A stretch of 37,681 bases of DNA from a virus (IMGVR_UViG_2541047945_000005), one strand, 5' to 3'; numbered from the stretch's first letter, positions 4,069-37,681 are shown. Made by a program: numbers and translations. The notes: generated by a model not told the origin, from the sequence alone.

Positions 4069-4098
4069 GGGGGCAGTATTGCCCCCGTGCGGGAACGC

Positions 4099-4122
4099 TG
4101 ATATTAAAGGCGTTTAAAAAGC
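4099..4122 (-). promoter_or_regulatory. conserved late-operon motif, copy 1 (candidate late promoter/activator site)
   Basis: ctgATATTAAAGGCGTTTAAAAAg, one of four aligned copies upstream of minus-strand late operons. Confidence 0.5.
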
Positions 4123-5888: not shown

Positions 5889-6091
5889 GGGGCAATATCC
5901 TCTTCTGTACGGGCTTCTTCAGCCTCAATCACCGGGATCAGTAACAACAGCCCGGAGGGCAGCACCGGCGTGATGGCCACGTGCGGATTGGCGGCAATAA
6001 TCCGGGGATAGCCCAGCGGGTCACCGTAGTACTGCCATGCCAGCGAATCCCAGCGCTCTCCGTCACGGGTAACATGTTCAAGAAACATCAC
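5876..6091 (-). CDS. tail protein X-like (LysM-like)
   Basis: 71 aa; R.GE.WDSLAW.YYGD resembles the P2 gpX family motif. Confidence 0.55.
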   Translation of the reverse strand: MMFLEHVTRDGERWDSLAWQYYGDPLGYPRIIAANPHVAITPVLPSGLLLLIPVIEAEEARTEEDIAPWLR

Positions 6092-6972: not shown

Positions 6973-9900
6973 CAGCGGTACTCCTTACGTTGTTTCTGAG
7001 CCAGCAGACGCTCCAGCATTTTTTCCAGCTCATGCAGACTCATATTCAGGGCACCAGTCAGTCCTGCAGGCGCTGTGGTTTCCCTGCCATTGAGGAAAAA
7101 CTGAGGATTAAAGCTGACCTGGATACCACCAGACGTTCCACCGCCGGTTGCAGCTGCACCACGGCCTGAATATCCGGCAGCCAGGATTTCAGGCGAGGGG
7201 ATACGGGGAACATCCGGTGTCATCTCATTTGCCAGACGTTGCCCTGGTAAAATCGATGCCCGGGTGGAGAGCGGAATAACGGGCATGGAAGACAAACTAT
7301 TGATTACGGCTCCGATCGCATTTTTAGCAGACGACATAAACCCATTGATATCGGGCAACGGCATACTGAAGCGAACACCTGAAGTGTTATCCCGTATTTC
7401 TGGCCCCTGAATGCTCACGGGCATTCTGGGGAGCAGTTCACTGGCCATTCGCTGCCCGGCCAGAGCTGCAAGCGGAGTGGTCCGCTGCAGGCCAATGGCG
7501 GCCCCCTGCGCGATATTGTCACCAAAGCCCATAAACACGCGGCTCGGCGAATGAATGCCCAGCTTTTCGCTGAACCAGCCACTGATGCTGTCACCCATTC
7601 CGGTTACACTGGATTTGAGCGACTCCCATTTGTTTTTGATACCGTTAATCAGACCGTCGACAAGATGGCCACCGAAGTCGGTGAACTTTGCCGGCAGATC
7701 AACACCAAGATATTTCAGCGCAGCTGCAAAGGCTTTATAGAGCAGACCTGCCGGCGACCAGTTAATCAGCAGCTTACCAGTTCCCGCGATACCGCCGTTA
7801 AAGGCTTCCTGAATGTCAGCCCAGCACTGTTTAAACCAGCTACTGATGCTGTCACCCATTCCGGTTACACTGGATTTGAGCGACCCCCATTTGTTTTTGA
7901 TACCGTTAATCAGACCGTCGATAAGATGGCCACCGAAGTCGGTGAACTTTGCCGGCAGAGCAACGCCGAAATATTTCAGCGCAGCCGCAAAGGCTTTATA
8001 GAGCAGGCCTGCCGGCGACCAGTTAATCAGCAACTTACCAATTCCCACAATGCCGCCGTTAAAGGCTTCCTGAATGTCAGCCCAGCGCTGTTTAAACCAG
8101 CTACTGATGCTGTCACCCATTCCGGTTACACTGGATTTGAGCGACCCCCATTTGCTTTTGATACCGTTAATCAGACCGTCGATAAGATGGCCACCGAAGT
8201 CGGTGAACTTTGCCGGCAGAGCAACGCCGAAATATTTCAGCGCAGCCGCAAAGGCTTTATAGAGCAGGCCTGCCGGCGACCAGTTAATCAGCAACTTACC
8301 AATTCCCACAATGCCGCCGTTAAAGGCTTCCTGAATGTCAGCCCAGCGCTGTTTAAACCAACCACTGACAGCCCCCCAGTTGCGGTAGATAAGGTAAGCT
8401 GCTGTCGCGACAGCGGTGATAACGAGACCGATGGGATTCATCATCAGCGCTCGCCCAATCCAGAGAACGGCACGTGCAGCGCTCATAAAACCGCGAACGA
8501 GGCTGCCCGCCAGAACTTTGCTGAGTTTCAGTCCTCCGCTGGTCAGTCGGCTGAATCCAGTGACAAGCCAGCGTAATTTGCCACCTTCTCCGAGTGCGGT
8601 AGTCAGTCGATGCCAGTTGGTCCGGAGTAAAACAGTAGTTTTCCAGACGTTCACAAAGGGGGAAATAAGGAGATTCAGCCCCAGTTTGAGACCAATAGTC
8701 GCTATCTTAATCGCAAGGAGCGCACTGATGAGCTTAAAAGCCCCACTGACAAATTGCGGGTGAGTCGCTACCCAGTGTTTTGTCCCCTGAATGAGTGGGA
8801 GCAGTTCCTGAGTCAGAGAAATAAAAGATGGAGCTAATTGATCGCCCAGCGTAATTGCCAGATCGCGACTGCTGACCATAAGTGTTTTAGTGGCTTCAAG
8901 GGGAGATTTCAGCCGCTGATCATAAGCACTGGCAAGCAAATCGTTATCCGCAGCCCTGAGAGCACCGGCACGGATCTCTCGATATCTGTCCATGTTGGCC
9001 AGCATCGGGCGGATAAATGCCATGACCTGCATATCCGCGAACATATCGCCCAGACCAAAGTTTTTCGCCAGAGCCTGAAGTGCCTCATCTCTTGCCGTAT
9101 CATTCTTTATTTTCATGGCTGATTTGAAGCCGGCCAGCGCTTCGGGGCTTTTGGCATTGAGGTAACGTTCTATAACACTCAACATCCCTTCAATCGGAGA
9201 GATCCCCGCAGCTTTATAACTCGCAATAGATCCCTGCAAATCAATACCCAGATCAGCAAACTGTTTCTGAGTATCGCGGGCAAAAATTTTGGTAAGAAAG
9301 TTTTTAAAATTATTGGCTGCTTCGTCGGTGGAACCTGCACCGATTTTTGCTATCTGGAGACTGGCCCCGATTTCAGCAACAGCCTCTTTTCCACTGGCAA
9401 GACCCGCCATCATTGGGGCCAGGGACTGCATCCACTTGACCTGATCCGGGATTTCAAATGACCCCTGGTCACCGGCATAAGCCATAATATTCTGAACGGC
9501 ACCAAAATCTCTGGCCGCACCTTTCAGGGAGTTTTGCCAGACTGCGGCCACTTTTGCCCAGTCCTGAGCAGACGTGCGTGTTGCCGTTGCCGCGCGGGCA
9601 ATATCCGGCATCAGAAAACCGATATCTGACACATTATCAATATTGTCGCTGATGAGTGAACCCACCGCCTCCTGCAGCTCATCCTGATACTGATTGTATT
9701 TAAGCGCCCAGCCTTTTATCTGTCCGGCAAGTGCATCCCGCGTTTTATTGTCATATTTTGCGGTGATCGACATATCAATCATTTTGTCCTGAAAAGACAT
9801 GGACTGCTGAACGGCAGGGGAAACCGTATGATAAACAGTCTGTGCCATGCCATACGCTTCAATCCCCTGACCATACAGCGCCATGCGGTTAGCTTTCAGC

Positions 9901-10677: not shown

Positions 10678-10728
10678 GATTGTGCTCCTGTGTAAGTTCA
10701 GGGCAGTATGTCGGGAGAAGCGCGTGAC

Positions 10729-10752
10729 GGATATTAAAGGAGATTAAGAAGA
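10729..10752 (-). promoter_or_regulatory. conserved late-operon motif, copy 2
   Basis: cggATATTAAAGGAGATTAAGAAg, about 52 nt upstream of the chaperone ATG; GC hairpin at 10754-10767 just upstream. Confidence 0.5.
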
Positions 10753-10774: not shown

Positions 10775-11056
10775 TCAGCAAGTGCGAAACCCCTTGCAGT
10801 TACGCAGGAAAGCGATGAGAAGCGTCTTTCCCTCAGATTTGCCGATGCCGGAGAACCAGTGGTCGGGAGGCTCCCATGCTTCAATCAAATCCGCCAGTTT
10901 GCGGGCCTTTGAACGTGTGCAGTCAATCGGGTCATTGGTTTTACGGGTATTAAAAAGGGTTTCCACCCCCGGAATATCAAGGAGGGTAAACCACGTACCA
11001 TTTGACATGCCCAGTGCCGCACATCGTCCTCCTTTATCCGTCAGTTCAACACTCAC
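10775..11056 (-). CDS. hypothetical small protein between tube and chaperone genes
   Basis: 93-aa ORF; no recognised motif; an antisense ORF (10782-11075) overlaps it. Confidence 0.3.
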   Translation of the reverse strand: MSVELTDKGGRCAALGMSNGTWFTLLDIPGVETLFNTRKTNDPIDCTRSKARKLADLIEAWEPPDHWFSGIGKSEGKTLLIAFLRNCKGFRTC

Positions 11057-11058
11057 CG

Positions 11059-11580
11059 TCAGCCCCCGATATTGATACGGTAGTCAGTCAGTTGATCAAC
11101 ACCGCCGACCCGGAAGATGTTGGCCAGATAGTCCAGTTGCAGCAGCTCTTCACCATCCAGTACCTGTCTGATATACGTGCAGGTGAAGCTACTGGAGAAC
11201 TCGGCGTTCTCGTGCTGTTTGAACGTCCCCAGCGGGTTCTTCTTGAACATAATCGTCAGGAAGGTGACCAGCGGGATTTCGTCAATCAGCCCCTGCGAGC
11301 TGTAGCGCTGGACGCTGGAACGACACTGCAGTGCCAGCGACCTGTACGGGTTCGCGGCAGACAGCATCGCATCGCGGTAAAAGCTGTTCCATTTGATTTC
11401 GCCTTCCAGCTTGTCAAAACCAGCCGGGAGTTCCACCTTACCCACCATCCCCAGCGCCTTGTGTTCCTGCATAATCATGGAGACATCGGGGAGTTTGACT
11501 TCCTCAGCCCGTCCCAGCAGGTTAGTACCATCCAGATAGATGTTGGCATTCGTGATGCGGTTTATCTCAATCTTTGACAT
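11059..11580 (-). CDS. tail tube protein (Mu M-like)
   Basis: 173 aa immediately downstream of the sheath gene, overlapping start/stop. Confidence 0.7.
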   Translation of the reverse strand: MSKIEINRITNANIYLDGTNLLGRAEEVKLPDVSMIMQEHKALGMVGKVELPAGFDKLEGEIKWNSFYRDAMLSAANPYRSLALQCRSSVQRYSSQGLIDEIPLVTFLTIMFKKNPLGTFKQHENAEFSSSFTCTYIRQVLDGEELLQLDYLANIFRVGGVDQLTDYRINIGG

Positions 11581-13007
11581 CAGTTGCCCCCTTTCAGGGT
11601 TAACAGGTATTCCGAGGTGATCTCAGTCTCAAACGTCAGTCGCTCCAGCGGCGGTGGTGGCGTATATTTGTAGCTCAGCAACAGGTGCCCGGCGGCCAGC
11701 TCCGTCTCCGGATTGCGGGCCGGATCAAACCAGCAACGGAAGCCCAGTACCGCACCATCACCAGTCATTTTGCGACCGTAGGCGTTGACCGACTCCGTCA
11801 GTGCATCAATCAGCGCCTGAGTAATCGGCATGTCGATGTACTGCTGGCTGAAATAACGAATGGACTCGTTGATCACATCACCGGTGCGGCGAACGTTCTC
11901 AAAGTTACGCATATGGGTGACCGTTGGCCATGCTGCCGTCCGGTTACCCCACAGACGAAGGCCGCTGCCGTAACTGCTGAATACCGTGGTGATCCCCTGT
12001 TCGTTAAGCAGGTTCACCTCACTCTGCGGGTCATCAATCATCGCGGACAGCTGGCGCTCCACGCCGGTGATCCCCAGAATCTCCTGATTGGAGGATGACC
12101 ACCAGTAGCCCTTGTCCAGATCGACTCTGGCACGCAGACCTGCTGCACGCTGGCTGAGCGGCTCCAGACGCTCTGTGTTTGTCACCGGGTCATATACCTT
12201 CACATGCGGATAGCACAGACGGACGCGGTCGGAGCTGGTATTGAAGTTGATGGTGCCTTCCGGGCCACGACCTGCCAGAGCCTGTGCAAAGGTGGTACCG
12301 ACAGGCGCATCAATGTAGGTTACCGCGCCCAGCTTCTCTGCCATGGCGATAAGCTCAACTGCGACACTCTTCTGGGTGCAGAACACCGGCGCAATCAGAA
12401 TTTTGGCGAAATAGCCGTACAGGTTGAAGCTGTCGTTAAGCAGCTTCATGCCGGTTCGGTTTCCGGCGCTGTTCACCCCGCCGATGATGTCCGCCGCAGT
12501 CACCTTCGACGGGTCCGCGTACTCATAGCTCACCTTCACGCTGCCACCGGCCTCAATAGCCTTGCCCAGGTTCGTGAGCACACCCGCCTGCGCATCAACA
12601 CGGTAGTCCGTGTTCGCCGTGTGGGTGGTGCTGCCTTCACTGTTTTTCACCACCACATTAGCGACAACCGGATGCGCCAGTCTGGCCTGCCCTGTCGATT
12701 TGTCAAAGGTAACCACCTCATCCTCGATCGCCGTTTTATGTTTCGCCGGGTCGAGGACGTTAATGACCAGAACGGTGCCTGCACCATGGTCATAAATCGC
12801 ATCCAGCGCCTGCGGAATGGTAAAGCCGGTGAACTGGCTGCCAAATGCCGCTGCGTCTTTCTCAGACAGGCACTGTACCAGCGTATTGACATCCCCCATC
12901 GGGGCGGTACCAATCAGGCCAATAACGGCAGATTTCACCGTTTTAACCGGGCGGGCTCCGTTTTCCACCTCAATGGTTTCGGGACCATGCAGATAGTTAG
13001 CTGCCAT
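11580..13007 (-). CDS. contractile tail sheath protein (Mu L-like)
   Basis: 475-aa ORF in sheath-tube order. Confidence 0.8.
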   Translation of the reverse strand: MAANYLHGPETIEVENGARPVKTVKSAVIGLIGTAPMGDVNTLVQCLSEKDAAAFGSQFTGFTIPQALDAIYDHGAGTVLVINVLDPAKHKTAIEDEVVTFDKSTGQARLAHPVVANVVVKNSEGSTTHTANTDYRVDAQAGVLTNLGKAIEAGGSVKVSYEYADPSKVTAADIIGGVNSAGNRTGMKLLNDSFNLYGYFAKILIAPVFCTQKSVAVELIAMAEKLGAVTYIDAPVGTTFAQALAGRGPEGTINFNTSSDRVRLCYPHVKVYDPVTNTERLEPLSQRAAGLRARVDLDKGYWWSSSNQEILGITGVERQLSAMIDDPQSEVNLLNEQGITTVFSSYGSGLRLWGNRTAAWPTVTHMRNFENVRRTGDVINESIRYFSQQYIDMPITQALIDALTESVNAYGRKMTGDGAVLGFRCWFDPARNPETELAAGHLLLSYKYTPPPPLERLTFETEITSEYLLTLKGGN

Positions 13008-14507: not shown

Positions 14508-15461
14508 TTATTTACTGATACCGGTAATGAGATACCCGGCATCGCCACCAACCACGGCGACTTTGTAGATATCGGTATAACGGCAGTACTTCACCTTGCC
14601 ACCGGCTCCGTCGTATTTGTCGGCAACAGGCATCCCCTTACGACGCAGGGTGTAGCCGAAGGACGGCTCGTTCTCGTCCGCGCTGTCCGCCCCCGGCTGC
14701 GGTTTGCCGACATAGTGCAGCATCAGATTGTCTCCCCAGATATCCGCCGGCACGCTGTTCTTATCCATTGCCGCTTTCATGGACGGCAGGGAGACTGGGG
14801 CACCGATGACGATCTCTTCGATCTGAAAGAGGTCCTGCAGGATTTCTGTGGTGATGCGCTTGCGTTCGTTGGCTCCGATGGCGGCCTGAATCGCCGGGTG
14901 GAACTTCAGCAGCGCCATCACGCCGGCCCCCATGGTCATCAGGTTAGGACGCAGCCCCGTGGCCGTACGGACCGCTTCCATACCGGCTTCAATCACCCCG
15001 ATGGGGTCCCCCTTACCACCGGCCCAGCGATCACTGGCTGTCAGTTTTTTGACGTGCCCGGTACGGTAGACCTTTTCATCCTGAGCCAGACGGGCAGCGA
15101 TAAGTTCACGGCGCAGGTTCACGCCATTCGTGGCGCGACGGATGGCCTTGCTCTCTTCGTTAAACATGGACTCCGCCTGCTCGCGATAGTCCACCGGCGC
15201 AGCCAGATCGTGTTCACCCAGCACCAGGTCCAGCGTGCCTGTTTTTTCACGGACCAGAACATTGCTGTCCGCCCCGACGGCACGCTCGGTGTCATATTCC
15301 ACAAAGGCGGTTTTCCCGAAGGTCGGTACACGCACGCCTTCCTTGTCCGTCAGCACGACGGGGAAAATACGTTCGCCGATGAATGCGGCATTTTTATAGC
15401 CACGGGCGATACTGGTCAGTACCGGATCAACGACACGTTTACCTTTTAAGTAATCAGACAT
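14508..15461 (-). CDS. major capsid protein (Mu T-like)
   Basis: 317 aa, follows the protease/scaffold gene. Confidence 0.75.
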   Translation of the reverse strand: MSDYLKGKRVVDPVLTSIARGYKNAAFIGERIFPVVLTDKEGVRVPTFGKTAFVEYDTERAVGADSNVLVREKTGTLDLVLGEHDLAAPVDYREQAESMFNEESKAIRRATNGVNLRRELIAARLAQDEKVYRTGHVKKLTASDRWAGGKGDPIGVIEAGMEAVRTATGLRPNLMTMGAGVMALLKFHPAIQAAIGANERKRITTEILQDLFQIEEIVIGAPVSLPSMKAAMDKNSVPADIWGDNLMLHYVGKPQPGADSADENEPSFGYTLRRKGMPVADKYDGAGGKVKYCRYTDIYKVAVVGGDAGYLITGISK

Positions 15462-15475: not shown

Positions 15476-16606
15476 TTACAGGCAGCGTGCGACAGCAGCC
15501 TCATAGCTGATGCCTTCTTTTTTGGACAGGGCCACTGCTTTCTGATGCAGGGCCAGACGCTCAGGATCGGCTTCCGCAAACTCTGCCACATCCACCTTCA
15601 CCGTGTCGCCGACACGCTCTTTTGTGGCCTGTTCGGCGAAATTCATCACCGGCTCCCCGTCGGAGAGCAATGAACGAAAGGCGGTGGCCAGCGGTGTGCG
15701 GCTTTCCCCCTCAGCAAACTCCACCGGCTTGTCGCCACCGGCGACGGCATCCAGCAGGGCAACCACCACGGAGGAGGCGCGGGGAGCCAGACGGCCCTCT
15801 GCGACCAGTTTTTCTGCAAAGGCCACATTGTCCTTATGCAGTTGCTCCTGTCTGACCTGTGCATCACGCGCATCGCGATCAGCAGCCTGCTGCTTCAGGC
15901 GGCGGTTCTCCTCCTGAAGGGTTTCAATCTCTTCTTTTGTCATCGATGATTCCTCGTTACTTGCGGAAGACGGCCCCGGGCCTGTCTCACTGAATTGTGC
16001 ACCTGCTGCATCCTGCGACAGTGTGTCGCGGTACGCCTCTTCGCGCAGACTGTTGAGCTGCCATTCCGGCAGGACTTTTTCTGCCTCGTCCAGACTGAAG
16101 CGGGCGATCAGAAAATCGCGCAGCTTTCCCCACAGGGAGGCATTCGTGATGGCCTGCCAGTCGGCGAACTCCACCACACCTTCTTCCTGCTCACTGAAGG
16201 ACACCTGTTTCAGCCCCTTGATGGAAGGTGGCTGTGCCCCGAGAAAGCCCACATGGCGAAGGTAGAGCACGCCGGGCTTCGGATTGGACGGTGAATCCGG
16301 GAGGTAGAAAGAGGCGGACACTTTTTTGAATCGTCCGTCGGTGACCATCTCAGCAAACTGCGGGTCCAGCTGGGCAGGCTCTGCCATCAGATCGACGCCG
16401 CTGAGCGACAGGGCTTTCACCCAGCCCCACGCCGGGTCTTCCGTTCTGGGATGACCAATCACGAGTGGTGCTTCATGGACGGACGGGTCATAGGCTTTCA
16501 CGCAGGCGGCAAGATCGTCTGGCGTGAACGGCAGTTTTTTGCCGTGCATATCGGTATGAGTACCGGCTTTAAAAGTAAGCGTAAACTGACCGCCGTATGT
16601 AGCCAT
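15476..16606 (-). CDS. head protease/scaffold protein (Mu I-like); native 5' end separated by the IS66 insertion, current start codon lies inside the IS inverted repeat
   Basis: 376-aa ORF with coiled-coil C-terminal half; first 11 codons (MATYGGQFTLT) are IS sequence; native ATG at 19131 is in frame once the IS and one duplication copy are removed. Confidence 0.65.
   Translation of the reverse strand: MATYGGQFTLTFKAGTHTDMHGKKLPFTPDDLAACVKAYDPSVHEAPLVIGHPRTEDPAWGWVKALSLSGVDLMAEPAQLDPQFAEMVTDGRFKKVSASFYLPDSPSNPKPGVLYLRHVGFLGAQPPSIKGLKQVSFSEQEEGVVEFADWQAITNASLWGKLRDFLIARFSLDEAEKVLPEWQLNSLREEAYRDTLSQDAAGAQFSETGPGPSSASNEESSMTKEEIETLQEENRRLKQQAADRDARDAQVRQEQLHKDNVAFAEKLVAEGRLAPRASSVVVALLDAVAGGDKPVEFAEGESRTPLATAFRSLLSDGEPVMNFAEQATKERVGDTVKVDVAEFAEADPERLALHQKAVALSKKEGISYEAAVARCL
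16567..16574. repeat. 8-bp target-site duplication (left copy) CTTTAAAA
   Basis: Identical to 19107-19114, directly flanking the IS termini. Confidence 0.85.
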
Positions 16607-16659
16607 CAGACGAGAATTGGTAACTTAGACGCCCATCTGATATAGACGGACATCTAAGT

Positions 16660-17085
16660 ATGGAATTACAGGACTGGCGAAAAGAACCTCGTAAAAACTA
16701 TTCGAATGAATTCAAACTTCGTATGGTGGAACTGGCATCACAACCTGGAGCTTGTGTTGCACAGATTGCACGTGAAAATGGCGTCAATGATAATGTTATT
16801 TTCAAATGGCTCAGGCTCTGGCAGAACGAAGGGCGTGTTTCGCGGCGTCTTCCGGTAACGACCTCTTCTGACACTGGCGTTGAATTATTACCTGTAGAAA
16901 TAACGCCGGATGAGCAGAAAGAACCTGTGGCGGCCATTGCGCCGTCTTTATCCACTTCCACTCAGACCAGAGTCAGTGCCAGTTCCTGCAAGGTGGAATT
17001 CCGTCACGGTAACATGACGCTGGAAAATCCATCGCCAGAGCTGCTCACAGTGTTGATCCGTGAACTGACCGGGAGGGGAAGATGA
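16660..17085 (+). CDS. tnpA: IS66 accessory protein TnpA (orf1)
   Basis: 141 aa, first ORF of the IS66 triad. Confidence 0.8.
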   Translation: MELQDWRKEPRKNYSNEFKLRMVELASQPGACVAQIARENGVNDNVIFKWLRLWQNEGRVSRRLPVTTSSDTGVELLPVEITPDEQKEPVAAIAPSLSTSTQTRVSASSCKVEFRHGNMTLENPSPELLTVLIRELTGRGR

Positions 17086-17432
17086 TCTCACTCCCATCAG
17101 GTACCCGTATCTGGCTCGTTGCCGGCGTTACCGATATGCGTAAATCCTTCAACGGACTGGGAGAACAGGTACAACATGTGCTGAATGATAATCCCTTCTC
17201 CGGTCACCTGTTTATCTTCCGTGGCCGACGGGGTGACACCGTCAAAATTCTTTGGGCTGATGCTGATGGTCTGTGCCTGTTCACCAAACGCCTGGAGGAA
17301 GGCCAGTTTATCTGGCCTGCGGTACGTGACGGCAAGGTATCCATTACCCGCTCGCAACTGGCAATGCTCCTCGATAAGCTGGACTGGCGTCAGCCAAAAA
17401 CATCCAGCCGTAACTCACTGACAATGTTGTAA
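17082..17432 (+). CDS. tnpB: IS66 TnpB (orf2)
   Basis: 116 aa, ATGA overlap with tnpA. Confidence 0.8.
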   Translation: MISLPSGTRIWLVAGVTDMRKSFNGLGEQVQHVLNDNPFSGHLFIFRGRRGDTVKILWADADGLCLFTKRLEEGQFIWPAVRDGKVSITRSQLAMLLDKLDWRQPKTSSRNSLTML

Positions 17433-17462
17433 AAAACTCCTGACCGCATTATAAAAACGGTC

Positions 17463-19076
17463 ATGAGTCAGAAATACCTCATTCGCATCGCAGAGCTGGA
17501 AAGGTTGCTCTCTGAGCAGGCTGAAGCCCTCCGTCAGAAAGACCAGCAACTGAGTCTGGTTGAAGAGACGGAAGCCTTCCTGCGCTCTGCACTGACACGT
17601 GCCGAAGAAAAGATCGAAGAAGATGAACGGGAAATAGAACATCTGCGGGCTCAGATAGAAAAACTGCGCCGGATGCTGTTCGGTACCCGTTCTGAAAAAC
17701 TGCGTCGTGAAGTTGAACTGGCTGAGGCTCTGCTGAAACAACGTGAACAGGACAGCGATCGTTACAGTGGGCGGGAAGACGATCCTCAGGTTCCCCGCCA
17801 GTTGCGACAGTCGCGCCATCGTCGTCCGTTACCGGCACACCTTCCCCGTGAAATACACCGCCTGGAGCCAGAAGAAAGCTGTTGCCCGGAGTGTGGCGGT
17901 GAGCTGGATTATCTGGGGGAAGTCAGCGCTGAACAGCTGGAACTGGTGAGCAGTGCCCTGAAAGTGATCCGCACAGAACGGGTAAAAAAAGCCTGTACAA
18001 AATGTGACTGTATTGTTGAAGCACCGGCGCCGTCCCGCCCGATAGAGCGTGGTATCGCGGGCCCCGGATTACTTGCCCGCGTGTTAACGGGAAAATACTG
18101 CGAACATCTGCCACTGTATCGTCAGAGTGAAATCTTTGCCCGCCAGGGTGTCGAACTGAGCCGGGCCTTACTCTCCAACTGGGTTGACGCGTGCTGCCAG
18201 TTAATGACACCGGTGAATGATGCCCTGTACCGTTATGTAATGAACACCCGCAAGGTTCACACTGATGACACACCGGTAAAGGTACTGGCACCGGGTCAGA
18301 AAAAGGCGAAAACAGGGCGTATCTGGACGTATGTCCGGGATGATCGCAATGTGGGTTCGTCATCTCCTCCAGCGGTCTGGTTCGCGTACTCGCCGAACCG
18401 GCAGGGGAAACACCCGGAGCAACACCTCCGCCCCTTCCGGGGTATCCTGCAGGCGGATGCGTTCACAGGTTACGACAGGTTGTTCAGTGCAGAACGTGAA
18501 GGTGGTGCACTGACAGAAGTTGCGTGCTGGGCCCATGCCCGGCGAAAAATCCACGATGTATACATCAGCAGCAAAAGTGCGACGGCAGAAGAAGCCCTGA
18601 AGCGAATCAGTGAACTGTACGCCATCGAGGATGAAATACGGGGATTACCGGAGTCAGAGCGTCTTGCCGTCAGGCAGCAGCGAAGCAAAGTGTTACTGAC
18701 GTCGCTGCATGAATGGATGGTGGAGAAGAATGGTACGCTGTCGAAAAAATCCAGACTGGGCGAAGCGTTCAGCTATGTACTGAATCAGTGGGATGCCCTC
18801 TGTTATTACAGTGATGACGGTCTGGCGGAGGCGGATAATAATGCTGCGGAAAGAGCGCTTCGTGCAGTCTGTCTCGGAAAGAAAAACTTTATGTTCTTTG
18901 GCAGCGATCACGGCGGCGAGCGTGGAGCACTGTTGTACGGGCTGATCGGCACCTGCCGTCTGAACGGTATCGATCCGGAAGCGTATCTGCGCCATATCCT
19001 GAGCGTACTGCCGGAATGGCCTTCCAACCGAGTTGACGAACTCCTGCCATGGAACGTAGTACTCACCAATAAATAA
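17463..19076 (+). CDS. tnpC: IS66 transposase TnpC (orf3)
   Basis: 537 aa; N-terminal coiled coil, CxxC...CxxC zinc motif. Confidence 0.85.
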   Translation: MSQKYLIRIAELERLLSEQAEALRQKDQQLSLVEETEAFLRSALTRAEEKIEEDEREIEHLRAQIEKLRRMLFGTRSEKLRREVELAEALLKQREQDSDRYSGREDDPQVPRQLRQSRHRRPLPAHLPREIHRLEPEESCCPECGGELDYLGEVSAEQLELVSSALKVIRTERVKKACTKCDCIVEAPAPSRPIERGIAGPGLLARVLTGKYCEHLPLYRQSEIFARQGVELSRALLSNWVDACCQLMTPVNDALYRYVMNTRKVHTDDTPVKVLAPGQKKAKTGRIWTYVRDDRNVGSSSPPAVWFAYSPNRQGKHPEQHLRPFRGILQADAFTGYDRLFSAEREGGALTEVACWAHARRKIHDVYISSKSATAEEALKRISELYAIEDEIRGLPESERLAVRQQRSKVLLTSLHEWMVEKNGTLSKKSRLGEAFSYVLNQWDALCYYSDDGLAEADNNAAERALRAVCLGKKNFMFFGSDHGGERGALLYGLIGTCRLNGIDPEAYLRHILSVLPEWPSNRVDELLPWNVVLTNK

Positions 19077-19106
19077 GCGTCAATACGGTGCTCCGTTGAC
19101 GCTTAC

Positions 19107-19114
19107 CTTTAAAA
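19107..19114. repeat. 8-bp target-site duplication (right copy) CTTTAAAA
   Basis: Identical to 16567-16574. Confidence 0.85.
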
Positions 19115-19187
19115 ATGTGAATGGCTGACATTTTGCTGTCCCGCGTTATGTTGTCGGAGACAGTTTGTGAGAAATGCAGGCCCGGCG

Positions 19188-19207
19188 ATTTTAATCTGCT
19201 TTAGAAA
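19188..19207 (-). promoter_or_regulatory. conserved late-operon motif, copy 4 (upstream of the native start of gene I)
   Basis: gcgATTTTAATCTGCTTTAGAAAa, 56 nt upstream of the native I ATG at 19131. Confidence 0.45.
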
Positions 19208-19345
19208 ACATCAGGGGAGAAGGACAGGGAAAGCAATGCGGTGAACCGGAGGCGGTTATAAAACAGAGGCTGTAAAGCCTTTATAAAGGTAATACAGCCC
19301 CTCATTCTCTGGCAATGATAAATCACCCGCCTGAAGAGAGAAAAC

Positions 19346-19804
19346 TCAGCGACGGGCCGCTGATTCAAGATGGCGGACAATGGTATCGAGGATGGGGATT
19401 ACCACTTCAGGCTGTAGTTCTCCATCCCCCGTCACCGGCAGGAACGGGCGGGCCGGAAGTTCAACAGACTCATTACGCCCCGTTTTACCCCCGAACTGGT
19501 GAATGGCACCGTAAACAACGTTGGTCCCCACAACAGCCTGCCGGTCGTCATGGTCGGTTGATACTGACCCCATCAGACGCCCGGTATCCTGCAGTGTCTG
19601 CCCGTCACGTTCTTCCGCTGCCAGCGAGGGCATCCACCCCGGACGCCCCTCATCAAGAAAGTTAAACTGTGTTTCCGCCAGCAGGGTTCCGGCGATTTTG
19701 CGCATCGCGGGCTCCAGGTCTGTGGCAGCAAGATCCAGCGCACGGAGGCTCCGGCGCAGGGATTTATCGTTAATGGTGATACTGACCAGGTTATCGGAAG
19801 CCAT
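19346..19804 (-). CDS. virion morphogenesis protein (Mu G-like)
   Basis: 152 aa, follows the F-like gene. Confidence 0.6.
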   Translation of the reverse strand: MASDNLVSITINDKSLRRSLRALDLAATDLEPAMRKIAGTLLAETQFNFLDEGRPGWMPSLAAEERDGQTLQDTGRLMGSVSTDHDDRQAVVGTNVVYGAIHQFGGKTGRNESVELPARPFLPVTGDGELQPEVVIPILDTIVRHLESAARR

Positions 19805-25525: not shown

Positions 25526-26250
25526 CAACTGCTGCCTCCCCATGTGAGATATCGCGGTGCCAGTTCGCGCAGGATGCGCTGCGGATAATGGCGGTTCTCC
25601 CGCCAGCTGGCCGCATTGCGTCCGGCATTCACCGTGGCGACATGTCCGAACCAGCGGGTGCTGTCCAGACCTTTCTGTGATGCAAGCCGCCTGTCCCGTT
25701 GTACCCAGCCCAGACCACCGTTATAGCCCGACAGTGTCATGGCCATACGCTCGCAGTCACTGGCGGCGCTGACACGCTGCCACAGCCAGCGGTCATAGCT
25801 GACCAGCGCCCGGATAGCCCATGCCGGATTAAACGGCTCACGACTGCTCAGCATCGGTATCAACTGGCTTATCCAGTCGGCAGTGGCAGGCATGAACTGC
25901 GCCAGTCCCTGAGCGCCAGCCGGCGAGATCGCATCAGGTCGCCAGCCGCTTTCCTGATGCAGTTGCGCGGCGAAATCGGCCACCGGCGCAGACAGTCCCC
26001 ATTCAAGCCGGGCATTACGGATCACATCATCGCGATACTGCAGCGCAGCCTGCGGAGGTTGTGCTGCGCATGCCTGGCTGAAAAAGCCGCCACACCAGAG
26101 CAACATTGCGACAAAGAATACCCATGCCATATGAACCAGAAAGGTCCCGGCGCGGACTGACAGGCGTTCGGTTCTGATGAAGACCCGAAAGGCTTCGAAA
26201 GCCAGTTTCAGGGACATGCATACAATCCAGGTGATCTGCGGCCAGTTCAT
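25510..26250 (-). CDS. endolysin, lytic transglycosylase (SLT-like) with N-terminal signal-anchor
   Basis: QLHQESGWRPDAISPAGAQGLAQFMP matches the SLT active-site region; hydrophobic N-terminal segment. Confidence 0.7.
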   Translation of the reverse strand: MNWPQITWIVCMSLKLAFEAFRVFIRTERLSVRAGTFLVHMAWVFFVAMLLWCGGFFSQACAAQPPQAALQYRDDVIRNARLEWGLSAPVADFAAQLHQESGWRPDAISPAGAQGLAQFMPATADWISQLIPMLSSREPFNPAWAIRALVSYDRWLWQRVSAASDCERMAMTLSGYNGGLGWVQRDRRLASQKGLDSTRWFGHVATVNAGRNAASWRENRHYPQRILRELAPRYLTWGGSSCVASD

Positions 26251-26603: not shown

Positions 26604-26651
26604 GTGTGTCTCCTCGTTTGGTGGAGACAGCATCACAAATACAGGGCGCAA

Positions 26652-26675
26652 AGGATTTTAAAGCGCGTTAAGAGA
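26652..26675 (-). promoter_or_regulatory. conserved late-operon motif, copy 3 (candidate lysis/late promoter)
   Basis: aggATTTTAAAGCGCGTTAAGAGa, 49 nt upstream of the holin ATG. Confidence 0.5.
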
Positions 26676-26733: not shown

Positions 26734-27210
26734 ATGACGCACACACTGAATCCGGTCATCACTGTCACTGTGTCCGGTCCTGTGGGCAGCGGTAAAAGTT
26801 ACGTACTGGCGCGGATAGAAGAGATGGTGAAACAGGAACTCGGAAACAGCGTCATTGTCGATGCTGCTGACGTGGAGAATGAGCGCCGTATGAATGGCGA
26901 AGATCTGACGACCTGGCAGAAGCCACGGGGTGGCACAGTGATCAGGCTAGAGGAATACACGGGACAGGGCCTGTTGTCATACGGCGAGGAGCGTATCTGT
27001 CGGACGAATGAGCTGCTGGATGTTATATGCCCCACGGGCCGGCAACCCTGGATACTGCCCGATGCACTGCATGCCACCATTGCGGCACTGATGACAGTTT
27101 ACGATCAGGAGCTGCTCATGAAGGAGTTACGTAAACTCACCGGTCAGCCAACAGAATGTTGTTCGTCTCCGAAGTACGGCAAACAGGAAAACGCCCCGGA
27201 TAATCCTTAA
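26734..27210 (+). CDS. small P-loop protein, possibly a kinase-like fold
   Basis: Walker A GPVGSGKS at residues 15-22, acidic VIVDAADVE segment after it; GAGGAG 7 nt before ATG. Confidence 0.6.
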   Translation: MTHTLNPVITVTVSGPVGSGKSYVLARIEEMVKQELGNSVIVDAADVENERRMNGEDLTTWQKPRGGTVIRLEEYTGQGLLSYGEERICRTNELLDVICPTGRQPWILPDALHATIAALMTVYDQELLMKELRKLTGQPTECCSSPKYGKQENAPDNP

Positions 27211-27229
27211 GATACCTCCTGAACAGAAA

Positions 27230-27245
27230 CAGCCCTGAAGGGCTG
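27230..27245. terminator. GC-rich hairpin between convergent genes (putative bidirectional terminator)
   Basis: cagccc-tgaa-gggctg; A-run on plus side, T-rich on minus side. Confidence 0.4.
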
Positions 27246-27247
27246 CA

Positions 27248-27829
27248 CTAAAAAAAGAAGTGTATTATTGCCCAAACAGCTATAACGATGATTCCCAGCC
27301 CAAGAGCCGATTCTAACTTATCTTTGGCAGTCATTTTTACTGTTGTAGCGGGCGCAGGTAAGTCTTGCTGCTGTGGATTTTCTGTTAGTTGTTTACGAGA
27401 AGAAACATCGCCCCTATTAGTTTGCTTCATGTTGATTACAGATGCGTTATGGGCATTATCAGCAGCAATTGACTGAAGTTTTACAAAAGTTTTTGAATCT
27501 GTTTTAGCCAGAAGTAACCTATTTCCCGTAAACATTGCCTTAAAAGTGATAGTTTTTTTCGTCTTGTCCGCCGCACCAAGCAAACCTCCAATGACCAACC
27601 CTGCACCACCAAAGATTAATCCACCAAGCAAACCTGCGCCTGCCGCCTTACCTATACGGCTTTCCTCTTCACTATCCGCAAGTTCAATCGATAAAAGCTC
27701 TTCTTTCAGATTTAATACAATATTTTCAGGAAAGCCTTGTTTTGGTTTTTTGGCAAACACGATGGTACCGAACCCCATGCTTGCCCACCCTTTAGGAAAA
27801 CTTCCTGCGATAACCTGAATCCCTGCCAT
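27248..27829 (-). CDS. glycine-zipper membrane protein with C-terminal anchor, unknown function
   Basis: GKAAGAGLLGGLIFGGAGLVIGGLLGAA and C-terminal LGLGIIVIAVWAIIHFFF; AT-rich; start taken at the third ATG (ORF track 27838). Confidence 0.6.
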   Translation of the reverse strand: MAGIQVIAGSFPKGWASMGFGTIVFAKKPKQGFPENIVLNLKEELLSIELADSEEESRIGKAAGAGLLGGLIFGGAGLVIGGLLGAADKTKKTITFKAMFTGNRLLLAKTDSKTFVKLQSIAADNAHNASVINMKQTNRGDVSSRKQLTENPQQQDLPAPATTVKMTAKDKLESALGLGIIVIAVWAIIHFFF

Positions 27830-27919
27830 GTTCATCACCTTTTACATTAAAATTTCAGAACGCAGCATGATGCCGCCTTTGTCTTTTTTCTGATCCCATG
27901 GTAATTCAGCTGTTATTTT

Positions 27920-28906
27920 CTATTTAAGAATAAAACGGTATTTACTGTCAGGAGTGCTTTGCTGATCAAGTAGCAGTGAACGACATGGAGCAGTCAAAAC
28001 CCGAGCATAACTACCATCAGGGCTTATGTTAATGTAACAAACCTTGCCCTTAACACTATAATTTTCGGGGACGGATGCCTTTGCTGATACAGTAAATTTA
28101 AGGGTATGCCAGCCCGTTTTTTGCTTGTAGCTTGAAACCGAATGGAAATCATCTGAGTACTTATTTAACCCTGGAAACATGCTGCGCAGTGCGGGGATGG
28201 AATCTTCTATTATTTTATCGTTGGTTTTAATGTTAAAAACGCTGGTTTCAGTAGAAGCTACTGCTTTGGCATTTCCCCATTTACCAGCGAACACAATCAT
28301 TCCCACGAAAAATATTGCTACAAGAACTAACACTCCCCCCAACACTACTACATGAGGCTTCCGGCTTCTGGTTGGTACAGTTGCGACTGATTTTGCACCG
28401 CTTTCCGATGGAGGTGATAGAGTTTTACTCTCATCACGAATATTCAGCAGATCATCAAAATAACCAAACACAGCCTGCAACTGCTCTTTGTCTAGGCCTT
28501 TAAGATGGGTTGTACCGAAATGCTTCAGACAGTATCTGTCACGGTCAAGACGATACCCAGGGTCAGTAAGCGCCATTATTTTGCTGACCAGAAGATTACA
28601 GTCCTTCATATTCTGGATCTGTTGTGCATATCTCTGAAGGATCTCAACCGCACCATGATAATCAGCCGCAGTCATTTCATTAACTGTTTTGGTATTAAGT
28701 TTCGTGTGGATCGTCATCCATAGCTCGCGCTTACTTTCCCCCAGATCAACCAATTCATCCATCAATCTGTGTAAATCGCGTTTTTGCAGCAACGAAATTG
28801 GTTGCTGGGCCGAAGGAAGTATGTCAGCAGAATAGTTATGAATGGTAACATCACCGCTGACAACGTTACCCACATCCCCGTTAACTGTTTGCTTCTCTTT
28901 ACTCAT
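27920..28906 (-). CDS. single-pass membrane protein translationally coupled to the repressor, unknown function
   Basis: 328 aa; one TM helix at about residues 176-198; ATGA overlap with the repressor stop; AT-rich. Confidence 0.65.
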   Translation of the reverse strand: MSKEKQTVNGDVGNVVSGDVTIHNYSADILPSAQQPISLLQKRDLHRLMDELVDLGESKRELWMTIHTKLNTKTVNEMTAADYHGAVEILQRYAQQIQNMKDCNLLVSKIMALTDPGYRLDRDRYCLKHFGTTHLKGLDKEQLQAVFGYFDDLLNIRDESKTLSPPSESGAKSVATVPTRSRKPHVVVLGGVLVLVAIFFVGMIVFAGKWGNAKAVASTETSVFNIKTNDKIIEDSIPALRSMFPGLNKYSDDFHSVSSYKQKTGWHTLKFTVSAKASVPENYSVKGKVCYINISPDGSYARVLTAPCRSLLLDQQSTPDSKYRFILK

Positions 28907-29364
28907 CTTCTCTTGGTATTTTTGTTCATTATTCCACCTGTTCCTATGGTTACGTTACCTTTGATAACATTCCCCAGAACATCTCCATGAATAACCTGTT
29001 CCGCCCGTTCTCTGGAGGAGCCAGTAGTCAAGGCCGACAAAACTGAACCTTTGACCTGTAATGGTGCCTGCCGGTAGTGCTGCAGTAACTCCATTTCATC
29101 ACGTGATAAAGTTATACCTGATGACTCCCCGGTAAGAATGAACTGTACATTGGCCCCAATTCTTGCAAAGGCTGCAAGTAACTCACCTCCGGGAACAGCA
29201 ACCCCTCGTTCATATTTCCCCCACATTTCTCTTGAAACGCCACAAAGGGCTGCTACTTCAGCCTGCTTGAGTGATAACCGCGAACGCTCAGCTTTGAACC
29301 GCGACGCGCAAAGAGAATCAAAATTCACATAAACCTCATTGACAATGAGAACAATAGTTCTCAT
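28903..29364 (-). CDS. CI-type (XRE-family HTH) prophage repressor
   Basis: HTH LSLKQAEVAALCGVSREMWGKYERG; divergent from the early operon; no LexA-like peptidase motif seen; alternative GTG start at 29328 with GAGG. Confidence 0.7.
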   Translation of the reverse strand: MRTIVLIVNEVYVNFDSLCASRFKAERSRLSLKQAEVAALCGVSREMWGKYERGVAVPGGELLAAFARIGANVQFILTGESSGITLSRDEMELLQHYRQAPLQVKGSVLSALTTGSSRERAEQVIHGDVLGNVIKGNVTIGTGGIMNKNTKRR

Positions 29365-36878: not shown

Positions 36879-37320
36879 ACAACGTCTTATCCAGCTCATT
36901 CATATTGCCCGTAATGAACTGGGTATGGATGAAGACACCTACCGCCAGATGTTACAGGGGCTGACCGGTAAAGCCTCAACCAAAGGAATGGATACCACAC
37001 AACTAAACTGCGTGCTGGAATCCATGAAAAGGAAAGGCTTTCGCGTTAAGCCTGCCGGAAAAGCCAGCTCCGGTTTACCGCTGGATAACCATCCGCAGTC
37101 CAGGAAAATCCGTGCGCTATGGCTTGAAATGGCTGCTGCCGGCATTGTTCGTGACCGTTCAGAAAATGCATTAGCGCGGTGGATCAAGCGGGAAACGGGC
37201 ATCAGCGCCCTGCGCTGGCTCAATACTGAACAGGCAAGCAGTGTTATTGAGAAACTGAAGAAGTGGCAGCACAGAGCTGCGGGAGTAAAACATGAGCGAC
37301 CTGAATCAGTTTCGAAGTAA
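36868..37320 (+). CDS. GemA-like protein (Mu gp16-like)
   Basis: Position directly upstream of Mor; AAAGGAG RBS. Confidence 0.5.
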   Translation: MMTKQRLIQLIHIARNELGMDEDTYRQMLQGLTGKASTKGMDTTQLNCVLESMKRKGFRVKPAGKASSGLPLDNHPQSRKIRALWLEMAAAGIVRDRSENALARWIKRETGISALRWLNTEQASSVIEKLKKWQHRAAGVKHERPESVSK

Positions 37321-37681
37321 AGGGCCGGAACTCCTGGTGGAACTGGCACAGCATACCTCTGAGACCGTTCGCGAGATTATTGATATTGAGCCCGCAATTG
37401 CCGACCAGATTGGTCAGGCCGTCGCGAACCGCATGATGCAGGTCTGGGGCGGGCAAAACGTTTATTTCCCGATGGGCATGGTATGGAAGGTCAGTCAGCG
37501 CGACCGGGAAATCTTCAGGGAGTTTAACGGACGTAACCACCATGAACTGGCCCGCAAATTTGGTGTTTCGCTTCAGTGGGTCTACAGCGTGGTTAAGCGG
37601 GTAAGAAAAGAAGAACTGGATCGGATGCAGGGCAAGCTATTTGCTGATGAACCCGATGTAGATACGGAGAAAAAAGAGTAA
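37292..37681 (+). CDS. mor: Mor-like middle-operon transcriptional activator
   Basis: 129 aa (the length of Mu Mor), C-terminal HTH (ELARKFGVSLQWVYSVVKR), last gene of the early block. Confidence 0.65.
   Translation: MSDLNQFRSKGPELLVELAQHTSETVREIIDIEPAIADQIGQAVANRMMQVWGGQNVYFPMGMVWKVSQRDREIFREFNGRNHHELARKFGVSLQWVYSVVKRVRKEELDRMQGKLFADEPDVDTEKKE

Follow-up and report, generated by a model that had tools for sequence, protein, structure and literature searches.

The window analysed here, a stretch of 37,681 nucleotides (IMGVR_UViG_2541047945_000005), carries a BcepMu-like transposable prophage of E. coli in which an IS66-family insertion sequence interrupts the head maturation protease/scaffold gene (Table 1). 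Pfam searches of the prophage identified rve, AAA_22, Phage_Mu_Gam, Mor, Portal_Mu, Phage_Mu_F and Phage_tail_S, and the prophage joins portal, F and G head genes of the Mu type to a module for transposition made up of a DDE transposase, an AAA+ B-like protein, Gam and Mor. Related prophages were found in 637 of 5426 genomes, in up to three copies per genome, and are integrated at many unrelated sites, as the Mor end adjoins different host genes across genomes; a sibling inserted at prpR has TGAT...ATCA ends with the direct repeat CGTCGG on both sides. Burkholderia phage BcepMu and Escherichia phage PhiKM, both of the genus Bcepmuvirus (the latter according to its taxonomy line), have the same order of portal, Mu F, Mu G, protease/scaffold and capsid genes with the same nested scaffold, but their protease gene is uninterrupted. 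The early and late regions diverge in the window prophage, whereas they are co-directional in Mu.

Table 1. Features of the interrupted late region and related elements of the window.
Feature	Position	Strand	Remarks
Late-promoter motif copy	4072..4107	-	upstream of baseplate W gene
Late-promoter motif copy	10702..10737	-	upstream of tail assembly chaperone and tape measure genes
Major capsid gene	14508..15461	-	first gene downstream; phrog_1005 'major head protein', 9e-130; polarity expected
Head maturation protease/scaffold gene, native part (residues 7-371)	15476..16574	-	phrog_976, BcepMu gp32 type
Mechanical fusion ORF, 376 aa	15476..16606	-	11 IS-derived codons, MATYGGQFTLT
Nested in-frame ORF, probable scaffold, 155 aa	15476..15943	-	begins at Met222 of fusion
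Target-site duplication CTTTAAAA (8 bp), left copy	16567..16574	.	single copy in IS-free siblings
ISEc23, IS66-family insertion sequence	16575..19106	+	2532 bp, ORFs intact
IRL, left terminal inverted repeat	16575..16598	+	GTAAGCGTAAACTGACCGCCGTAT/GTAAGCGTCAACGGAGCACCGTAT end pair, 20/24 match to IRR
tnpA, 141 aa	16660..17085	+	HTH_Tnp_1 (PF01527), 5e-12; RefSeq name tnpA
tnpB, 116 aa, IS66 Orf2	17082..17432	+	PF05717, 1e-36
tnpC, DDE transposase, 537 aa	17463..19076	+	DDE_Tnp_IS66 (Pfam), 9e-98; zf-IS66, LZ_Tnp_IS66 and C-terminal domain
Orphaned native start, 22-codon ORF MSAIHIFKGKRQRSTVLTLIYW	19063..19131	-	ATG 19131, stop inside IS
IRR, right terminal inverted repeat	19083..19106	-	within strong minus-strand hairpin, then U-rich tail
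Target-site duplication CTTTAAAA (8 bp), right copy	19107..19114	.	seen in the sequence
Late-promoter motif TTAAAATC-N22-ACTGTC	19159..19194	-	upstream of native start, now cut off by IS
Terminator-like hairpin after gene G, then UGUUUUAU	19260..19308	-	-20.9 kcal/mol, z = -4.55
Mu G-type virion morphogenesis gene	19346..19804	-	upstream neighbour; PF05069, 5e-23
Late-promoter motif copy	26626..26661	-	upstream of holin/lysis and packaging block
Mor-family transcription activator	37292..37681	+	last early gene; PF08765, 1.3e-43

Comparison of the inserted element with many E. coli copies showed 100% identity across all 2532 bp, and exactly this length was also found in ten other full-length copies that we fetched. 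The name ISEc23 is taken from the RefSeq product name of the identical copies, 'IS66-like element ISEc23 family transposase'. Its Pfam domains follow the order PF01527, PF05717 and PF03050, the last together with PF13005, PF13007 and PF13817, which corresponds to the tnpA-tnpB-tnpC layout of IS66 elements, and an identical tnpC protein is recorded in 14,723 assembly blocks. The two ends, GTAAGCGTAAACTGACCGCCGTAT and GTAAGCGTCAACGGAGCACCGTAT, agree at 20 of 24 positions and form imperfect inverted repeats starting with GTAAGCG. Sequence, gene order, termini and 8-bp duplication are thus those of known ISEc23 and the location alone is particular, and we regard this as a standard copy that is probably still able to transpose. 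An earlier note on this DNA had described a 2532-bp, three-ORF IS66-type element between direct repeats, inserted antisense within the late head operon; its coordinates, element type and 8-bp repeats all agreed with our analysis, and the IS genes indeed lie on the plus strand and the late operon on the minus strand.

Duplications of 8 bp were likewise present at 10 of 12 other full-length ISEc23 copies examined. At least 15 complete E. coli genomes contain the reconstructed empty site with 100% identity, 593 have it at ≥99%, and the phage isolate PhiKM carries it too; because this site exists in E. coli genomes, the CTTTAAAA pair is no chance repeat. Strain FDAARGOS_1249 harbors a near-identical prophage at the same prpR junction without the IS, differing from the window by 8 single-base mismatches and by one 82-base window stretch in the lysis-gene region that did not align. 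The presence of this IS-free sibling at the same prpR site indicated that the IS was inserted in situ, after lysogeny.

The insertion point lies 17 nt into the protease/scaffold gene. Removing the IS and one repeat copy restored an ORF of 371 aa (MSAIHIFKAGTHTDMHG...) starting at ATG 19131, which is exactly the RefSeq CDS (1116 nt) of the uninterrupted IAI39 prophage and whose product is 99.5% identical to the PhiKM protein over residues 1-371. These matches bear out the earlier proposal of a start at this ATG, and the late motif was located 56 nt upstream as stated there (TTAAAATC at 19194-19187). The comparison with relatives that had been suggested as a check pointed the same way, since IAI39, PhiKM, BcepMu gp32 and 30 diverse homologues (51-89% identity) all start upstream of the insertion and have a conserved N-terminus. 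Residues M1, H5, I6, F7 and G10 are invariant among the 30 homologues, residues 4-8 form a confident first beta strand in the structure model, and two of the six codons stranded beyond the IS encode family-invariant residues.

Several lines of comparison characterized the encoded protein, which is 48.5% identical to BcepMu gp32. The phrog_976 profile ('head maturation protease', 1.9e-159) matched the fusion from residue 12, its first native residue, and residues H47, S92 and H113 (native numbering) are invariant, with a spacing resembling a Ser-His-His triad, which makes them a candidate catalytic triad. The predicted N-domain was closest to herpesvirus proteases, with KSHV protease as the top, though weak, Foldseek matches (E=5e-3, probability up to 0.97), which gives a tentative likeness to the assemblin fold of prohead proteases; catalysis is a candidate function. 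Phage P2 gpO gave a weak hhalign match beginning at the N-terminal strand (E=0.0022), and the name 'GPO family capsid scaffolding protein' has been given to some close homologues.

The designation "gene I" used in the earlier note holds as an equivalence of position and function, but not of detectable sequence homology. The restored protein matched no Pfam protease family even at E≤10 (the Mu gpI family being PF10123), hhalign against Mu I returned E=0.4, and among the 82 phage records matched by tblastn (E≤1e-3) the two from Escherichia phages were PhiKM and Phi06_2974 B, so Mu was absent from these matches. Shared with Mu I/Z are the position after G, the nested scaffold, the central intergenic region and a Mor/C-family activator, and the depositors of BcepMu annotated gp32 as 'Mu I equivalent' and the nested gp33 as 'Mu Z equivalent'. 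The nested ORF of the window has GAGGA 7 nt before ATG 15943 (dG -5.9), a long helix in the structure model begins at its start, and annotations of BcepMu, RcapMu, B3 and Mu show such nesting as well; the ORF probably encodes a scaffold that corresponds to Mu Z and BcepMu gp33.

The fusion ORF left by the insertion is named 'hypothetical protein' or 'peptidase' in RefSeq, and the identical protein is recorded in 90 assembly blocks. As stated previously, it opens with 11 IS-encoded codons, 10 lying wholly in the IS and one across the junction; the start codon does not fall inside the inverted repeat, as had been claimed, since ATG 16604-16606 corresponds to IS positions 30-32, 5 nt internal to the 24-bp repeat. 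This "new start codon" is the first in-frame ATG inside the IS, a mechanical ORF start that does not in itself indicate expression. It lacks a Shine-Dalgarno sequence (dG -0.1 kcal/mol, the weakest among the starts tested) and is base-paired in the predicted fold. By comparison, the native start scored -4.0 kcal/mol and other late genes ranged from -4.7 to -12.2; because the native start is weak too, Shine-Dalgarno strength alone is a soft argument. The fusion ORF keeps the candidate catalytic H47, S92 and H113 and an intact nested scaffold start, and has the invariant H5 and I6 replaced. We consider it unlikely that the annotated fusion start is used in the cell.

Searching the window for TTAAWATC-N22-RCTGYC returned exactly four matches, all on the minus strand and each preceding a late gene block, where chance would give 0.01, a statistic that is partly circular because the pattern was built from these same four sites. 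The motif is kept in all E. coli relatives fetched, and TAAAGCnGATTAAAA and TTTATAAAGGCTTTAC, two blocks of the G-I intergenic region, are shared with BcepMu. In phage Mu, four late promoters depend on C, including one before I, and the Mor-family protein is a candidate for acting on the four motifs of the window. The strong terminator-like hairpin after gene G, which was also found by a consensus scan, suggests that the protease gene relies on its own promoter. As the earlier note claimed, the IS parts the gene from the late-promoter motif, the ribosome-binding site and its first codons. At the IRR, the minus strand has an 82-nt stretch with a folding energy of -23.8 kcal/mol (z = -3.5) and with UUAUUUAUUGG directly behind it, which form the first structure met by a late-promoter transcript, and the antisense RNA is C-rich across the first ~600 nt of the IS. 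A consensus scan of the left IS end found no outward-reading promoter.

Taken together, we think it likely that ISEc23 entered a resident BcepMu-like prophage after integration, disabling the protease/scaffold gene and downstream head functions. Following transposition into the integrated prophage, antisense to the late operon, transcription from the late promoter would run into 2.5 kb of antisense IS sequence that is not translated and has the IRR terminator-like hairpin at its front, and on account of both, little transcript would be expected for the protease gene, the major capsid gene and the head and tail genes behind them, as far as the late promoter that comes next (~10.7 kb). Any read-through RNA would offer no usable initiation signal for full-length protease, and the fusion ORF additionally lacks two residues in the first beta strand that are invariant across the family. 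Given an IS-derived ATG with no Shine-Dalgarno sequence and predicted base pairing, loss of function with polarity on the capsid genes is likely; polarity, termination at the IRR hairpin and absence of translation are the effects this model predicts. As the lysis, terminase and portal block retains its own promoter, the induced prophage should replicate by transposition and lyse the cell, but make no capsids. The defect in head maturation suggested earlier is therefore probable, but the damage is likely wider, because the major capsid gene and the genes beyond it also lose their promoter. Additional lesions in IS-bearing siblings, namely a further IS3-family element in the tape measure gene of MMC-J-0105, a split portal gene in UGFX01 and the loss of transposase genes in 254D-1, are consistent with decay.

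Alternatively, the insertion may be tolerated, with read-through or a weak IS promoter allowing the fusion ORF to yield a working protease and the IS-bearing phage spreading by infection. The fusion ORF is open and in frame with the candidate His/Ser/His residues kept, a promoter-like match (9/12) lies on the minus strand at 17214-17185, and ISEc23 is present in lambdoid phage records, where it falls under a tail-fibre or side-tail-fibre protein annotation, which shows that a phage genome is able to carry it. The junction occurs at prpR, beside aroA and between yeeW and yoeF, and these three chromosomal sites, together with the 90 assembly blocks holding the fusion protein, could mean a still-mobile phage. 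However, IS-free siblings occupy the same prpR (FDAARGOS_1249) and aroA (23070, gene intact) sites, indicating that in both lineages the allele postdates integration and did not arrive with an infecting phage. The start codon, with no Shine-Dalgarno sequence and with predicted base pairing, and the replacement of H5 and I6 argue in the same direction, as does the 2.5 kb that the IS adds to a 37.1-kb headful-type genome; in Mu, added DNA of ~2.5 kb truncates the distal end. The IS-prophage junction was also found in no phage isolate or IMG/VR contig, and we regard a tolerated insertion as improbable.

The identical junction, with the same position, duplication and orientation, is found in three prophage backgrounds at three chromosomal loci, which could reflect a hot spot for insertion or, alternatively, recombination that transferred the allele. 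Independent insertion, in which ISEc23 struck a nucleotide-precise site two or three times, stands in our estimate just short of an even chance. Beyond the identity of the three junctions, each background has its own flanking SNPs, of which the closest on the left is 352 bp away and the closest on the right 194 bp; the 254D-1 copy is a different ISEc23 sequence type with four SNPs, three of them shared with a copy in gene G of 23070; and this latter copy, in the AVS0528 prophage lineage, is a separate insertion 424 bp away in the same orientation. On the other side, no ISEc23 target consensus emerged from 10 other duplications or ~31 further IMG/VR contig sites, the target sequence does not resemble the inverted repeats of the IS, no IMG/VR contig has an insertion in the BcepMu-like prophage family, and the junction is present in just 5 of ~637 prophage-bearing complete genomes.

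A single insertion, followed by movement of the IS-bearing allele among related prophages through homologous recombination, is a serious possibility that we nonetheless place below one half; co-resident prophages, superinfection or transduced DNA could provide the route, and the 254D-1 IS type would have changed later by gene conversion. An IS without sequence specificity is very unlikely to strike one base pair three times, recombination partners exist because the prophage family is common and multi-copy in some genomes, and backbone SNPs are mosaic, with IAI39, for example, mixing alleles of both types. Such transfer would nevertheless require both crossovers close to a 2.5-kb heterology, no further than 352 bp from it on one side and 194 bp on the other, and a separate conversion event for the second IS type, and it leaves the nearby independent insertion in gene G unexplained. 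As ISEc23 otherwise has no target sequence preference, local DNA structure or a bound protein would have to guide the transposase to a hot spot. In this prophage family the protease gene opens only ~120 bp away from the exact centre, with its first codons beside the late promoter and a conserved hairpin, and Mu has a strong gyrase site in its central region. That the site is a nucleotide-precise, orientation-specific ISEc23 hot spot set in this manner is a tentative idea, and in our judgment a rather doubtful one.

Insertion of ISEc23 into a head gene is in itself ordinary, textbook prophage decay. Other IS-disrupted prophages include those of E. coli O157 Sakai that bear IS629 and the IS1-carrying Mu X mutants, where insertion into a gene that is essential or serves morphogenesis makes an inducible prophage defective. 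Unlike these, the present case offers a near-identical IS-free sibling at the same site and a junction that recurs in other backgrounds. The annotation is corrected accordingly, as the 376-aa "hypothetical protein/peptidase" of RefSeq is an IS-prophage chimera. FDAARGOS_1249 without the IS and LC-1302-2020 and MMC-J-0105 with it, whose prophages are otherwise near-identical and at the same site, form a natural pair that allows a direct test of the roles of the late promoter and the protease/scaffold in a BcepMu-like E. coli phage. The recurrence in three backgrounds is the only part that is possibly new, bearing on IS66-family target choice or on movement of alleles between prophages, and if the hot spot is true, it would mean repeated, independent disarming of BcepMu-like prophages.

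Removing the IS66-type element together with one copy of its flanking repeat restored an ORF from the native ATG that begins MSAIHIFKAGTHTDMHG and exactly matches a gene of IAI39, for which RefSeq annotates precisely these 371 codons. At least 15 complete genomes carry the reconstructed 443-bp empty site at 100% identity, and 593 carry it at ≥99%; because it occurs intact in complete genomes, the 8-bp duplication is no chance repeat. The coordinates, terminal repeats and IS66 domains all agreed with the earlier note's description of a 2532-bp element with an intact duplication. The finding reported there is real, and its interpretation is correct except for the weight given to a "new start codon" and the name "gene I". 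RefSeq already shows the IS, and it misleads by listing the 376-aa chimera as though it were a regular protein.

Positions of the insertion, the interrupted gene, the late motifs and other features of the prophage and its relatives
Feature	Sequence	Position	Strand	Remark
Duplication CTTTAAAA	window	16567-16574 and 19107-19114		flanks the 2532-bp element
ISEc23	window	16575-19106		2532 bp; tnp ORFs on plus strand
Hairpins at both IS ends	window	19066-19106; 16623-16659		strong
Only minus-strand promoter match inside the IS	window	17214-17185	minus	~600 bp upstream of fusion ATG; consensus scan
Present (fusion) ORF	window	15476-16606	minus	376 aa; first 11 codons IS-derived
Native ATG	window	19131	minus	start of restored ORF
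Nested ORF	window	15476-15943	minus	155 residues, in frame; opened by GAGGA-N7-ATG at 15943
Late motif	window	26626-26661	minus	before lysis and packaging block
Late motif	window	19194-19159	minus	TTAAAATC-N22-ACTGTC; upstream of native ATG, before protease and capsid block
Late motif	window	10702-10737	minus	before tail assembly and tape measure block
Late motif	window	4072-4107	minus	before baseplate block
G-I intergenic region	window	19115-19345		between gene G and the interrupted gene
G-I intergenic region	FDAARGOS_1249 (locus L029)	19437-19650		
Prophage ends TGAT...ATCA	FDAARGOS_1249 (locus L029)	1021-1040 and 38143-38160		
Bases unaligned with FDAARGOS_1249	window	25811-25892		82 bases; lysis-gene region
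Tandem repeat in tape measure gene	window	7573-8368		261 bp, 3.0 copies, 96% identity
Tail-fibre gene	window	1-2059		300-bp and 168-bp tandem repeats at 809-1825
AT-rich cassette	window	26734-29364		between repressor and holin gene
IS3-family element in tape measure gene	MMC-J-0105 (locus L004)	10831-12044		
Frameshifted portal gene	UGFX01000002 (locus L010)	4501-5998		
Deletion of transposase and B genes	254D-1 (locus L005)	33807-35119		

IS66-family domains were present on the three plus-strand ORFs of the element in canonical order, and its ends carry imperfect inverted repeats (GTAAGCGTAAACTGACCGCCGTAT and GTAAGCGTCAACGGAGCACCGTAT) that match at 20 of 24 positions. It was 100% identical over its full length to many E. 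coli chromosome and plasmid copies, named "IS66-like element ISEc23 family" in RefSeq, and ISEc23 matches covering at least 80% of the element length were present in 2489 of 5426 complete genomes. No target consensus was found in ten other ISEc23 duplications or in ~31 insertion sites on IMG/VR contigs. Targeting of inverted-repeat-like sequence was rejected, as neither the left nor the right terminal inverted repeat (IRL, IRR) matched the target region better than 14/28, which is background level. The ISEc23 literature dealt with plasmid and resistance contexts and one insertion near yoeF, and held nothing on target choice or this prophage. A scan of genome contigs with the IS end returned two loci only, too few for use, and an Rfam search of the whole window returned nothing at the gathering threshold. 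The IRR end is internally palindromic, with U-rich sequence beyond it in both directions, and between IRL and tnpA there is a hairpin of 16 bp; the strong hairpins at the IS ends may insulate ISEc23 from outside transcription. The left end of ISEc23 also occurred in the lambdoid phage records LR595861, LR595864, OM475427, OM475428 and OM475430, where the annotation is tail-fibre or side-tail-fibre protein, which suggests that phage genomes can carry ISEc23 along where it is located in a gene they can do without.

The window holds almost a whole transposable prophage. Its early genes run rightwards on the plus strand and encode a DDE transposase (rve), an AAA+ B-like protein, Gam and a Mor-family activator. 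On the minus strand are lysis genes (holin and SLT-domain lytic transglycosylase), a DUF3486 (Mu gp27-like) protein and a weakly terminase-like large protein at the terminase-subunit position, head genes (Mu-type portal, Mu F and Mu G, then the interrupted gene and the major capsid gene), and genes for a contractile tail, baseplate and tail fibre. The prophage splits prpR in LC-1302-2020 and MMC-J-0105, and in other genomes the same prophage end adjoins many unrelated genes, as expected for transposition. The IS-free sibling prophage in FDAARGOS_1249 is 37,118 bp long and lies between two direct copies of a 6-bp prpR sequence (CGTCGG), a hallmark of transpositional integration; GATAAATG is repeated in its terminal regions. 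The closest phage isolate is PhiKM, an Escherichia phage of the genus Bcepmuvirus; its copy of the gene has no interruption and shows 99.5% identity to the restored protein across residues 1-371.

Beyond the insertion, relatives whose tape measure protein has 983 aa in place of 1070 aa differed by exactly one unit of the tandem repeat in this gene, so tail length may vary between lineages. The tail-fibre gene contains seven Phage_fiber_2 repeats. The window region beside the invertase is inverted relative to LC-1302-2020 and is also without the tail fibre assembly gene that FDAARGOS_1249, the IS-free sibling, has; this absence may be a second lesion. Three ORFs lie in the AT-rich cassette: one of 158 aa on the plus strand ("ABC transporter ATPase" in RefSeq), one of 196 aa that is Gly-rich and membrane-like, and one of 328 aa. 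The prophages at aroA and yeeW have another repressor and a DNA adenine methylase in its place, which gives it the appearance of an exchangeable module for immunity and cargo.

As a name for the interrupted gene, "gene I" was right for a positional and functional equivalent, and the gene is outside the Mu I sequence family. Its protein was 48.5% identical to BcepMu gp32, annotated by its depositors as "Mu I equivalent" with the nested gp33 as "Mu Z equivalent", whereas similarity to Mu I itself was undetectable (hhalign E=0.4), so the name denotes equivalence and not family membership. The fusion ORF hit the phrog_976 family ("head maturation protease") at 1.9e-159, with an alignment that starts exactly at its first native residue. 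Pfam returned no family for the protein even at E≤10, NCBIfam no match for the protease or the capsid protein, and a sequence search of solved structures no match; the protease matched P2 gpO weakly (E=0.0022). An AlphaFold model from an alignment of 30 homologues gave a confident N-terminal domain, for which herpesvirus proteases (KSHV) were the best PDB matches, at a probability of up to 0.97. Residues H47, S92 and H113 were invariant in the homologues, and from their spacing we infer a Ser-His-His triad. The nested ORF is largely helical and lies on a long predicted helix; it is a probable scaffold, equivalent to Mu Z and BcepMu gp33. Truncated homologues from the protein search (P0028, P0033, P0035 and others), considered as further IS sites, were other deletions or contig ends.

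The first block of the late motif ends 56 nt from the native ATG, in agreement with the earlier note. The pattern TTAAWATC-N22-RCTGYC had exactly four copies in the window, every one on the minus strand and in front of a block of late genes, against ~0.01 expected by chance, a comparison that is partly circular because the pattern was derived from the same four sites. Support independent of this statistic came from conservation, as every E. coli relative that was fetched kept the motif, the 254D-1 backbone (98% identical) among them; BcepMu too has the block TAAAGCnGATTAAAA. The four motifs are probably Mor-dependent late promoters, paralleling the four late promoters of Mu. A second AT-rich half-site lies ~10 bp upstream of each motif. 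A strong predicted hairpin (-20.9 kcal/mol, z = -4.55) and a U-rich tail come after gene G, which makes it probable that the protease/capsid block relies on a promoter of its own. The midpoint of the G-I intergenic region falls at 49.9% of the IS-free prophage length, placing the insertion ~120 bp from the exact prophage centre; the strong gyrase site of Mu lies in the central region (PMC10052514). The hairpin block TTTATAAAGGCTTTAC of the G-I region is kept in BcepMu although the proteins are only ~48% identical.

In FDAARGOS_1249 this prophage occupies the same prpR junction with no IS and a single clean copy of the target sequence, and, apart from the unaligned lysis-region bases, it showed 8 single-base mismatches to the window over ~34 kb aligned. 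Because an IS-free sibling sits at the same junction, the IS entered a resident prophage. The exact fusion protein was on record in 90 assembly blocks, and the complete genome CP077325.1 was identical to the window over 21 kb. ISEc23 lies in the protease gene at prpR in LC-1302-2020 and MMC-J-0105 (window lineage, identical IS copy), next to aroA in AVS0528 (backbone 99.3%, identical IS copy), and between yeeW and yoeF in 254D-1 (backbone 98.4%, four SNPs in the IS), with the same junction in 360D-1. At these three sites the junction is identical in base, duplication and orientation. IS-bearing siblings are damaged elsewhere too, by an IS3-family element in the tape measure gene (MMC-J-0105), a portal frameshift (UGFX01000002) and loss of the transposase and B genes (254D-1). 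The exception among the compared loci (L004-L007) is 23070, with the same prophage next to aroA as AVS0528 and an intact protease gene; here ISEc23 lies in gene G, 424 bp away, in the same orientation, with the duplication CAACAGCC and three SNPs relative to the window copy. An ISEc23 right-end remnant beside the 254D-1 prophage was weighed as a possible sign of IS-mediated rearrangement and set aside, being probably an older feature of the CP4-44 region.

Two explanations of this recurrence remain. A structural hot spot may have been hit repeatedly, as two ISEc23 sequence types are involved, the copy in 254D-1 sharing three of its four SNPs with that in 23070; the backbone flanking the IS is undisturbed in AVS0528 and 254D-1, whose own alleles persist to 352 bp on its left and 194 bp on its right, and the gene G insertion in 23070 lies nearby. 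The absence of target specificity in ISEc23 argues instead for one event, after which the allele moved between related prophages by recombination, a route also favoured by how common the prophage family is, with 637 genomes carrying as many as three copies apiece. The spread of a still-viable IS-bearing phage is unlikely, given the IS-free siblings at the same integration sites and a search of phage isolates and IMG/VR contigs that returned no such junction. Every component is of a known kind: ISEc23 has been described, enterobacteria are known to have BcepMu-like prophages, and prophages classically become defective through IS insertion. The insertion itself is of low interest, and its recurrence a modest extra.

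A transcript from the late promoter would translate a 22-residue peptide, MSAIHIFKGKRQRSTVLTLIYW, from the native start, would at once meet the IRR hairpin, and would then cross 2.5 kb of untranslated antisense RNA. On the transcript strand the palindromic hairpin is followed by UUAUUUAUUGG, and the antisense strand of the IS is C-rich over its first ~600 nt. By what is generally known of transcriptional polarity, such a hairpin and untranslated antisense RNA would be expected to favour intrinsic and Rho-dependent termination. Of the proposed new start codon, the in-frame ATG is present, at IS positions 30-32, which places it 5 nt internal to the detectable inverted repeat and not inside it; the weight given to it as a start did not hold, since it lacks a Shine-Dalgarno sequence (anti-SD pairing -0.1 kcal/mol; native start, -4.0; 13 other late genes, -4.7 to -12.2) and is paired in the predicted fold, with a 16-bp hairpin preceding it. 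In the left IS end, a consensus scan for promoters gave no outward match. In the fusion, moreover, T-L-T takes the place of I4-H5-I6; the replaced residues sit in the first, confidently modelled beta strand, and H5 and I6 are invariant among the 30 homologues (51-89% identity).

The IS would also lengthen the 37.1-kb headful-type genome to ~39.7 kb, and in Mu an addition of 2.5-kb size shortens or removes the distal end. The best reading is that the protease allele is null or strongly reduced, with polarity on the capsid and downstream genes, and that the lysis and transposition functions retain their own promoters.
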